A stretch of DNA of 61,579 bases, counting the filler, from Catajapyx aquilonaris (Eukaryota), in NCBI GenBank assembly GCA_000934665.2. It is 3 parts of 3 records of this genome, joined end to end, with 100 filler letters (N's around TTAATTAATTAA, not from the genome) between each part and the next. Parts side by side here need not be neighbours in the genome. Positions count along the whole stretch, not along the records: positions 20,579 to 41,029 come from JYFJ02006256.1; 2 more parts are not named here. One strand, given 5' to 3'. Made by a program: the position numbers and the translations under genes. Numbering within the stretch: position 1 is the stretch's first letter; each line of letters starts with the position of its first letter. The notes beneath the pieces are model-generated. The model made no database searches. It was given only the letters and a program-made list of their open reading frames with translations, and was not told where the DNA came from. This document shows positions 27,578 through 30,036 of the stretch, piece by piece.

Positions 27578-30036
27578 ATGCGAGTATTCAGGATAAACGT
27601 AAGGATTGTTGCATTATGCATTTTGGTGATCGCTGGAGGTGTTCTGACGTACTTGTCGCATGGAATATTCAACAAAGTGTACCTGAAAGATGAGGATGGC
27701 TACTACAACCAGAGCGTAATGAGAATGAGGCATGTAAGTTTTAACTGCACGTACTGTGCAATATTCTACTACAGAGTTGACCTATACATATGTTTTTACC
27801 TGCGTACTATGTGATGTCCCTCTGGTCACGACCTCTCACATGGAAGGACCTGATGACACTAAACACCGCAGTTTCTCCTGGACTGCTCCCGGTCCACAAC
27901 ACACCTGATGAGAGAAGGACACAAGTGAAAGAGGTGCAGCAGTCTATTTGTCACTAATGTACAGTGCAAGTGTTTTTGAAGGCTATAGGCTGCAGCATGT
28001 TTCATTCTGAATTTACAAGGTTAACATCTGCAGACCAACTTTGCTGCCTATTATTCGTGTGATAAGTGACGGCTGCTTTGTCACCTTGCTTTGCTGATTT
28101 GGCCATCAATATCACAAAAATATTTAATTTGAATTTATTTTACGTATACGGCCTTCAATACTCGTCATTGCAGATGATGAAGCACGCTTGGAACAATTAC
28201 GTCCTATATGCTTGGGGAAAAGACCATCTTTGTCCTGTGACTAAAGAAGGGGACAGCATAGGCATGTTCGGATCCTCCAGTTCTCCAGGAGCCACCATTG
28301 TGGACTCAATGACCACCCTGTACATCATGGACATGTCGGAAGAGTTTGAGCAAGCCAGAAGTTGGGTTGCAAACTTCTCCGTGGATCAAATGGTACTATG
28401 ATTTAAATTCTATTTCAACGCCTTCAATTAAAGTTTAAATTATTATTATTAGTCTGGGAAAATATGGAGCAGGAAACACCGACAGGAAGTCAGTCAAAAT
28501 ATCTCAATTTCTGCTACAGGATGGGTCTCTATCGGTGTCCAAAACTAATGCGAGATTTGTTGGCGGATTCCTGTCGTGCTTTGCCCTGACGGGTGACAAA
28601 ATGTTCAGGGATAAGGCGCGGCAGGTGGCGGACAGGCTTCTTCCTGCCTTCCAGACACCGACAGGAATACCGTATAATTATGTTAACATCAAAAATGGGG
28701 TGAGTGAGTGATTGTGTCGAATTTTGTATCATTTAACGATGGTCATATTTTTATACTCACATCAGGAATCCAGGAACTGGGCTCCTGGCGAATGCAGCGT
28801 ATTGTCCGAAATAGGAAGCTTGCATCTGGAATTTACGTACCTTTCGGACATAACCGGAAACCCAGAATACAAAGACAAGGTCACGGAAGTCAGGAATTAC
28901 CTCCAGACACTGAACAAGACTAATGGATTGTACCCTAATTTCTTGAACCCCAAAACTGGACAGTGGGGCATGGGTAAGTACGTTGACAATATTTGATGCT
29001 TTTTTTGTTTCACATTAATTGGGCTCTTCATGCAGACCACACGTCACTCGGTGCATTTGGAGACAGCTTCTACGAGTACCTTCTGAAGGCCTGGATTCAG
29101 TCCGGAAAGCAGGACAAAGACGCCAGAAGCATGTACGACCAGGCAATGGAATCAGTTACCAAGTATTTGCTTCGAAAATCAAAGAATGGCCTTTTGTACT
29201 TGGTGGACGTGAAGTTAAACATTTTGGGAAGCAAGATGGAGCACTTGGCATGCTTTGCAGGCAAGTCCCTGTTATTCGATCATGAAGGTTGTTTTCCATT
29301 TTTATACACGTTTTTCTCAGGAGGATTGTACTCACTGGGAGCTAGCACACTCAAAAGCATCGTGTCATACGAGTACATGAGGATTGGAAAGGCTCTAACC
29401 GACACTTGTCACGAGTCATACGTCAGGACTGCCACCGGCCTAGGTCCGGAGTCATTTGAGTTTACGGACGACGTTGGAGACGCACCATTTGAGAGCATGC
29501 ACAAGCAGTACCTGTTGAGACCCGAAGTGGTCGAGTCATATTTTGTCCTCTGGAGGCTGACCAAAGACCAGAAGTATCGGGAATGGGGTTGGGAAGTATT
29601 GCAGGTGCACACACACAAATTCAACTGTGACAATTGGCAGTTTTGTTGATTATTTCCATTGCTAATTAGGCCATTGAGAAACACTGCAGAGTGGAAGGTG
29701 GATACACCGGTTTGACCAACGTCTACCTGGAAGATTCGCCAAAAGACAACGTGCAGCAGACATTCTTCCTCGCAGAAACCCTCAAAGTATTCTGCATTCA
29801 GTGCTATACAATAATATTATTATCCTCTGCTGGCCAGAAGTTTCATAAGTTTCCCTAAACAGTTAAGAATATTCTCAAGCCTTGCAATATTCATGTCTTT
29901 CCAGTACCTGTACCTCCTGTTTAGCGAAGATGGCTTGATCGACCTGGATGAATGGGTACTCAATACAGAAGCCCACCCACTGCCAATCAAAGGTGTCAAT
30001 CCAATTTACAGCGAGCAGAATAATTATTATGAGTGA
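27578..30036 (+). CDS. GH47 alpha-1,2-mannosidase-like, copy 2, ~535 aa, catalytic Glu replaced by Lys. Exons 27578-27733, 27847-27933 (uncertain acceptor), 28174-28392, 28520-28699, 28766-28973, 29036-29260, 29321-29604, 29670-29786, 29905-30036
   Basis: Exons 3-8 have the same sizes as in copy 1 (219/180/208/225/284/117), the reading frame is open and GH47 motifs are present. Exon 4 reads [16 protein letters not shown]. Confidence 0.9.

Follow-up and report, generated by a model that had tools for sequence, protein, structure and literature searches.

Mannosidases of glycoside hydrolase family 47 (GH47) set the mannose code by which the maturation of glycoproteins is weighed against their degradation. 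For years it was argued over EDEM1-3 and yeast Htm1/Mnl1 (GH47 subgroup 3) whether a GH47 domain could function purely as a lectin; their GH47 domains were long debated as lectins rather than enzymes, and the EDEMs turned out to have kept their catalytic residues. In human endoplasmic reticulum (ER) mannosidase I, an excerpt of PMC12550843 identifies E330 as the catalytic acid and E599 as the base, and extracts of PMC5035969 give E330, D463 and E599 as catalytic residues conserved in all GH47 proteins and retained in the EDEMs. The EDEMs handle oligomannose glycans through binding as well as trimming, according to an excerpt of PMC7926307. The stretch of Catajapyx aquilonaris DNA analyzed here (61,579 nucleotides including filler, GCA_000934665.2; hereafter the window) contains on its + strand three tandem GH47 genes with numerous introns of 60–130 nucleotides, as in a eukaryotic locus. 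No other GH47 copies were found in the window by tblastn using the exon peptides of copy 2 and four foreign ManIA proteins as queries, and every larger open frame scanned in copies 1–3 matched PF01532 well above its cut-off. The general acid Glu, a family trait (E330 equivalent), is absent from the second gene, copy 2 (27578–30036, + strand; nine exons, 535 codons), and Lys is present instead. We favor the view, with a probability of roughly 55%, that copy 2 is a selectively maintained, non-hydrolytic Golgi-type class I alpha-1,2-mannosidase paralogue that possibly binds oligomannose. It is a well-supported candidate from one genome.

The Lys codon had been noticed in a sequence-only reading of this DNA as part of an SVSKTNAR segment, and it can be read directly in exon 4 (exon B of the catalytic domain), where positions 28520–28561 are GAT GGG TCT CTA TCG GTG TCC AAA ACT AAT GCG AGA TTT GTT with AAA at 28541–28543. 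The altered motif is Ser-Lys-Thr-Asn-Ala (28538–28552, + strand) in place of the family Phe-Glu-x-Asn-Ile, reflecting Phe to Ser at TCC 28538–28540 and Ile to Ala at GCG 28550–28552 in addition to Glu to Lys; the Arg that directly follows (28553–28555) is the kept R334 equivalent. Both siblings retain the Glu, as that reading also stated, with FETNIR in copy 1 and FEFNIR in copy 3. The proposed alignment to GH47 structures, run with phmmer against PDB chains, pairs the copy 2 Lys with a Glu in both reference enzymes: that of SVFEVNIRFVGG in the 5kkb and 1nxc chains of mouse Golgi mannosidase IA, and that of LFESTIRILGG in 5kij, human ER mannosidase I. Adding 244 to the 5kij chain index gives the residue number and makes the latter Glu E330. 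The yeast equivalent of this residue we take to be E132. Among full-length ManIA-like relatives, mostly from insects, the Phe, Glu, Ile and Arg of the motif are each found in 122 of 122 sequences, and the claim that the lost Glu is a conserved catalytic acid is upheld. Considering the best 150 cluster representatives from 1.84 billion proteins, Glu is present in 129 of the 132 that cover the site; the exceptions (P0227, P0234 and P0265) are models of 82–284 residues that begin at or just before the acid-site exon, so their first residues are untrustworthy.

The remainder of the active site is retained. Alignments with 5kij, 5kkb, 1nxc and 1fo2 (offset 244) identify equivalents of R334, D463, R597, E599, E663, T688 and E689 in copy 2, and the columns of R597, E599, D463, E663, T688 and E689 are not among its deviations. 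The D463 equivalent is encoded by GAC 29062–29064 in exon 6, which contains GDS; the E599 equivalent by GAA 29524–29526 in exon 7, which contains LLRPE; the E663 equivalent by 29775–29777 in exon 8, which ends in AETLK; and the T688 and E689 equivalents by 29965–29970 in exon 9, which contains NTEAH. All four of the short motifs that had been reported to persist (GDS, RPE, ETLK and NTEAH) are therefore found. Two additional substitutions from the same reading are confirmed in exon 3 (A): LRP to LCP, where TGT at 28231–28233 encodes Cys and relatives have Arg (80/122) or Lys (40/122), and VDSMDT to VDSMTT, where ACC at 28312–28314 encodes Thr and 120 of 122 relatives have Asp. At 79 invariant columns the deviations found only in copy 2 are F80S, E81K and I84A, all in the one motif, and where conservation is 95% or higher, a single five-codon window holds three of the ten deviations unique to copy 2 (permutation P = 0.03). 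These results agree with the idea of an otherwise intact gene in which substitutions cluster at the active site.

The gene model of copy 2 is complete from start to stop on the + strand. Exon 1 (27578–27733) provides the start codon, a short basic tail (MRVFRINVR), a 17-residue hydrophobic signal anchor with a Kyte-Doolittle 17-residue maximum of 2.62, and the beginning of the stem; it ends with the donor CAT/GTAAGT at the same position as exon 1 of copy 1, to which it is identical at 24 of 52 residues, with proportions of synonymous and nonsynonymous differences (pS and pN) of 0.77 and 0.27. The membrane anchor that had been suggested for copy 2 is thus present as a predicted signal-anchor exon. 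Exon 2 (27847–27933; donor GAG/GTGCAG, acceptor assigned by frame) encodes stem, and the joined sequence matches the family pattern RRxKVKEMMKHAWDNY. The GH47 domain begins in exon 3 (A, 28174–28392) and continues through exon 4 (B, 28520–28699; phase 0, AG acceptor at 28518–28519, GT donor at 28700), exon 5 (C, 28766–28973), exon 6 (D, 29036–29260), exon 7 (E, 29321–29604), exon 8 (F, 29670–29786) and exon 9 (G, 29905–30036), with the stop codon at 30034–30036. All acceptors are AG and all donors GT except for one GC donor that is common to copy 1 and is spliced there; in copy 2 it opens the 60-nucleotide GC-AG intron D-E (29261–29320), which is itself open and in frame. Exons A–F have equal sizes in copies 1 and 2 (219, 180, 208, 225, 284 and 117 nucleotides) and no copy contains a stop, as had been claimed for copy 2, and neither stops, frameshifts, lost splice sites nor intron loss were detected in its 535 codons and eight introns. 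Five exon junctions of copy 1, including the GC-AG intron, agree with spliced contigs of run X5 from another study, in which the copy 1 intron at 26268–26327 is skipped (joint 26264/26325, 60 nucleotides skipped). Since the junctions of copy 1 are skipped in X5 contigs, the exon plan common to copies 1 and 2 is real. Spliced contigs from X5 were found for copy 1 and none for copies 2 or 3, in a very small run that is uninformative on expression; no RNA run was listed as containing 27300–30100. Retention of the 60-nucleotide intron (29261–29320 in copy 2; 26268–26327 in copy 1) would add 20 residues and keep the frame; the equivalent intron of copy 3 is GT-AG and 112 nucleotides long.

Other variation and candidate mechanisms were also noted around exon B. 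The source individual is heterozygous, and a second-haplotype contig over copy 2 carries small intron indels and substitutions (28394–28444 and elsewhere) and a synonymous AGG/AGA change in exon B at 28609. An estimate of pN/pS from the two alleles was dropped, as several of the listed differences (28941 and the insertion behind 28976) have the copy 1 state and may come from copy 1 contigs, and a further 77 differences fell outside the listing. RNA editing of AAA to a Glu-like codon was considered and rejected: the fold of 28393–28780 has z = -1.81, the codon falls in a small loop that is missing from the centroid, and no long duplex is formed. An upstream alternative exon carrying FETNIR was likewise not seen in the sequence of the intron at 28393–28519.

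Membership of copy 2 in GH47 is clear from PF01532 matches of 68.9, 60.1, 58.6 and 167.1 bits for exons A, B, C and D-E (cut-off 22.9), which cover positions 1–392 of the 455 in the profile, and from the matches of exons F and G to mouse ManIA chains. The 120 best hits listed are all ManIA-like. In a FastTree phylogeny of 32 sequences copies 1–3 form one clade beside an Artemia ManIA-like protein; this tree was built without ER mannosidase I or EDEM sequences, so placement in the Golgi subgroup rests on the best hits. By these comparisons copy 2 belongs to the Golgi mannosidase I subgroup (ManIA/IB/IC), with a predicted type II topology given by the exon 1 anchor. Searches for orthologues, in which exon B was compared with proteins of near or longer length and exons D-E with longer proteins, yielded nothing above 75% identity and no protein of this organism.

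The divergence between copies 1 and 2 is uneven along the gene. The two can be aligned as DNA, introns included, over about 28514–29790 at 89% identity, and introns B-C to E-F are 82–95% identical. For intron A-B the alignment is no better than that of shuffled sequence; the exons on either side are 82–85% identical. Introns A-B and F-G, which flank exons A and G, show no alignment between the copies or only a weak one. The first 36 bases of exon B contain 14 differences, of which 5 to 6 are synonymous, and identity becomes high immediately past the Arg codon at 28553–28555. Synonymous divergence (dS) is 0.15 in exons C–F, 0.34 in exon A, 0.45 in the rest of exon B, 0.88 in exon G and 1.14 in the first 12 codons of exon B, and synonymous sites are near saturation where the copies were never homogenized. 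We read this pattern as an old duplication followed by gene conversion across the middle of the gene, and the 5′ edge of the converted tract adjoins the altered motif.

Several tests indicate that copy 2 has been constrained outside that motif. Deviations at the 79 invariant columns number 5, 7 and 9 in copies 1, 2 and 3, and those at 215 columns at least 95% conserved number 24, 30 and 44, respectively. Copies 1 and 2 differ at 68 amino acids; polarizing these differences with copy 3 and the family majority as outgroups assigned 23 to copy 2 and 18 to copy 1 and left 27 ambiguous (binomial P = 0.53). The pairwise ratio of nonsynonymous to synonymous divergence (dN/dS) between the two copies is 0.32. 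Along the copy 2 branch, exons A and G have a dN/dS of about 0.17 for polarized changes only (Fisher P = 4e-5) and 0.39 with 11 ambiguous changes added (Fisher P = 0.01), and for the whole domain, charging two thirds of nonsynonymous and one half of synonymous changes to copy 2, it is about 0.48 (Fisher P = 9e-4); the constraint on copy 2 expressed by these values (branch dN/dS 0.17–0.48) is measured relative to paralogues only and is confounded by gene conversion. Neutral simulation along the copy 2 branch gave a probability of remaining free of stops of 0.003 for the catalytic domain and 0.041 for the converted tract. Because the frame, start codon and anchor are kept and branch dN/dS is low elsewhere, constraint was probably lost only locally, at the catalytic motif and early after the old duplication, and kept in the rest of the gene. 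The earlier proposal of a non-catalytic paralogue is in this way supported as far as the intact gene, the clustered changes, the retained remainder of the active site and paralogue-based purifying selection outside the motif are concerned.

Competing explanations differ in which of these observations they can accommodate. It is hardly credible that the Lys codon arose as an error of assembly or sequencing, or that it is a rare variant, somatic or allelic. The interval 28145–28583 is covered by separately assembled contigs of three runs; the X1 contig spans this interval with 0 differences from the window, and the X2 contig, from the other haplotype, has three differences that are all intronic (28410, 28411 and 28444). 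AAA is carried by both haplotype contigs, which answers the suggestion that the codon be checked in sequencing data, even if all DNA runs with this stretch come from one sample in one study and X1 and X2, being from the probable source of the assembly, are not independent of it. Moreover, the codon lies amid 13 further base differences from copy 1 within the first 36 exon bases and so is not a lone miscalled base. A second possibility, that copy 2 has remained a hydrolase but now works by a different mechanism or on a different substrate, with another residue or water serving as the acid and Ser and Ala widening the pocket, appears quite improbable. It is consistent with the retention of all other active-site residues in a gene under constraint, and the copy-2-specific changes G142E, G53D and S27D (catalytic-domain positions) introduce new carboxylates; altered specificity in the lineage is also hinted at by an invariant Glu-Ala pair of the family that neither copy 1 nor copy 2 retains. 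The new carboxylates, which might or might not lie near the scissile bond, are, however, placed by sequence only, the Glu is invariant among all credible relatives examined, and charge reversal at the acid together with loss of two invariant neighbors is what relaxed catalytic constraint would be expected to produce. Yeast and human GH47 acid mutants are inactive or almost so, which also counts against a shifted hydrolase.

A young or unexpressed pseudogene, whose open frame and low dN/dS derive from earlier function and repeated gene conversion from copy 1, deserves more serious attention, and on balance we consider it unlikely. Several observations point in its direction and weigh against selective maintenance. 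About 72% of the catalytic domain (codons 86–411) falls in the conversion-like tract of about 28556–29790 that is 82–95% identical to copy 1, introns included, and gene conversion there could have mended decay. In the maximum likelihood tree from FastTree the terminal branch of copy 2 (0.137) is twice that of copy 1 (0.066), with copy 3 at 0.58, and private deviations at well-conserved columns number 10 in copy 2 compared to 4 in copy 1. If all nonsynonymous changes in the whole domain are charged to copy 2, dN/dS rises to 0.72 and is no longer significant (P = 0.10). The neutral probability of escaping a stop is small but not extreme for the parts with few sites that lie outside the tract (0.088 for the never-converted parts of the domain, 0.07–0.21 for exons 1–2), the models of exons 1 and 2, splice sites included, are predictions without RNA support, and the copy 2 Lys is known from one genome only. 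Nevertheless, the branch lengths and polarized counts taken together indicate that the rate of evolution of copy 2 is about double that of copy 1, yet short of free decay. Exons 1, A and G record an old divergence (pS 0.28–0.77) with pN/pS of only 0.3–0.4, and polarized changes in exons A and G are split symmetrically between copy 2 (9) and copy 1 (7). The start codon, the anchor and 16 of 16 splice dinucleotides are intact, and exons A–F have no indel, while the alignable introns B-C to E-F have 7 gap events in about 253 nucleotides. The motif itself has undergone about 4 nonsynonymous steps in 5 codons, one of which, ATC to GCG, needs three base changes; catalysis was probably lost long ago because the motif has been hit independently several times.

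Selective maintenance of a non-hydrolytic paralogue remains our preferred explanation. The predicted copy 2 protein of 535 residues would begin with a short tail on the cytosolic side, followed by a single signal anchor, a short stem and a complete GH47 domain. In that domain the general acid has become Lys and the adjacent invariant hydrophobic residues Ser and Ala; the Thr that holds calcium, the Glu that acts as base and the remaining -1 site carboxylates and arginines are kept. The (alpha/alpha)7 barrel fold of the family and the hold on terminal mannose would most likely be preserved; with Lys in place of the general acid the leaving group could not be protonated, and hydrolysis, in GH47 a calcium-dependent alpha-1,2-mannosidase activity inhibited by kifunensine, would presumably be lost. 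Such a protein might act in the early secretory pathway as a binder of oligomannose glycans, or as a decoy or regulator alongside its siblings. More tentatively, copy 2 may be the first naturally occurring GH47 protein of the Golgi mannosidase I branch to be catalytically dead, having lost its acid soon after the old tandem duplication and having since been kept as a membrane-anchored oligomannose binder that holds or shields high-mannose N-glycans from its active neighbors, as a brake on trimming or a cargo lectin. Among enzymes at large, dead paralogues are common. A full-text literature search found no paper on a natural GH47 member lacking the acid, and a dead Golgi-type GH47 protein appears to be undescribed so far. 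If the acid was indeed lost and the gene kept by selection, copy 2 would offer a clean test of the GH47-lectin idea and a ready-made oligomannose binder without hydrolysis.

The neighboring copies provide context for this comparison. Copy 1 occupies about 23900–27014 on the + strand, with catalytic exons at 25146–25364, 25523–25702, 25771–25978, 26043–26267, 26328–26611, 26698–26814 and 26877–27011. The far more diverged copy 3 (30572–32641, + strand) has exons at 30572–30748, 30821–31039, 31113–31292, 31358–31580, 31663–31887, 32000–32274, 32343–32459 and 32519–32641. The description of these siblings as active has in its favor that copy 1 is spliced and expressed; the description is weakened by an Arg at an invariant Trp of copy 1 and by the loss of an invariant Glu-Ala pair from copies 1 and 2. 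The former, CGG at 25969–25971 (W200R) in G-x-W-G, a site that is Trp in copies 2 and 3 and in all 122 relatives, means that the supposedly active copy 1 is also radically changed at an invariant site. The latter lies upstream of LRPE, at 29476–29481 in copy 2 and its counterpart in copy 1; the family has Glu-Ala in 122 of 122, as does copy 3, and copies 1 and 2 have Gly-Asn and Gly-Asp, a loss that may reflect altered substrate handling in both. An X5 contig of copy 1 that joins 24867 to 25144 starts at 24685, upstream of the exon 2 acceptor expected from copy 2, and within 24685–24869 the frame has an ATG at 24696 and, after it, a second stretch that could serve as a signal anchor. The segment may represent unspliced RNA or else an alternative first exon.

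Outside the cluster, frames at 16215–17172 (+ strand) match paired-box/helix-turn-helix domains and a DDE_3 endonuclease domain in two different frames, which suggests a decayed transposon of the Tc1/mariner type, upstream of the mannosidase genes in the window. An open frame at 10635–11042 (+ strand) matches TAPR1-like (PF15251, E 1.7e-14), and ABC transporter exons with ABC_membrane and ABC_tran matches lie at 53108–59279 on the - strand. The pattern of 44 N, 12 bases and 44 N at 20479–20578 and 41030–41129, and the run of 125 N at 7392–7516, may be gaps or masked stretches.

Comparison with described systems helps to define what is distinctive about copy 2. Its best match in all searches is Golgi ManIA (MAN1A1; arthropod alpha-Man-Ia; GH47 subgroup 2), with E values of 2e-16 to 9e-44 per exon for the mouse chains 5kkb and 1nxc and 51–56% identity to arthropod ManIA across exons D-E. 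Like ManIA it has the type II layout, the base Glu, the GDS Asp, the calcium-binding Thr and both Cys of HLxCF and TCHE. Unlike ManIA it has Lys for the general acid, Ser and Ala for the invariant Phe and Ile alongside, Thr for the invariant Asp of D-x-x-D-T, Cys for an always-basic residue, and a very short stem of about 80 residues ahead of the domain. The EDEMs are now regarded as active mannosidases, whereas copy 2 is without the acid, and by sequence copy 2 belongs with ManIA and not with EDEM. Laboratory GH47 acid mutants (Glu to Gln at human E330 or yeast E132) have been used as inactive forms that still bind substrate; no relevant paper on the kinetics of E330Q, E599Q, D463N or E132Q was among the matches listed. 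The same residue is gone from copy 2, but here the change is natural, the charge is reversed, and two invariant neighbors are lost as well. A similar evolutionary route was taken by the chitinase-like lectins of family GH18, such as mammalian YKL-40 and the insect imaginal disc growth factors, which are glycosidase duplicates that lost the catalytic Glu, kept the fold and sugar groove, and are maintained by selection as binders. Those proteins are secreted, their binding has been measured, and their fold and family are unrelated to GH47, while copy 2 would be a membrane-anchored counterpart with a putative capacity for binding.

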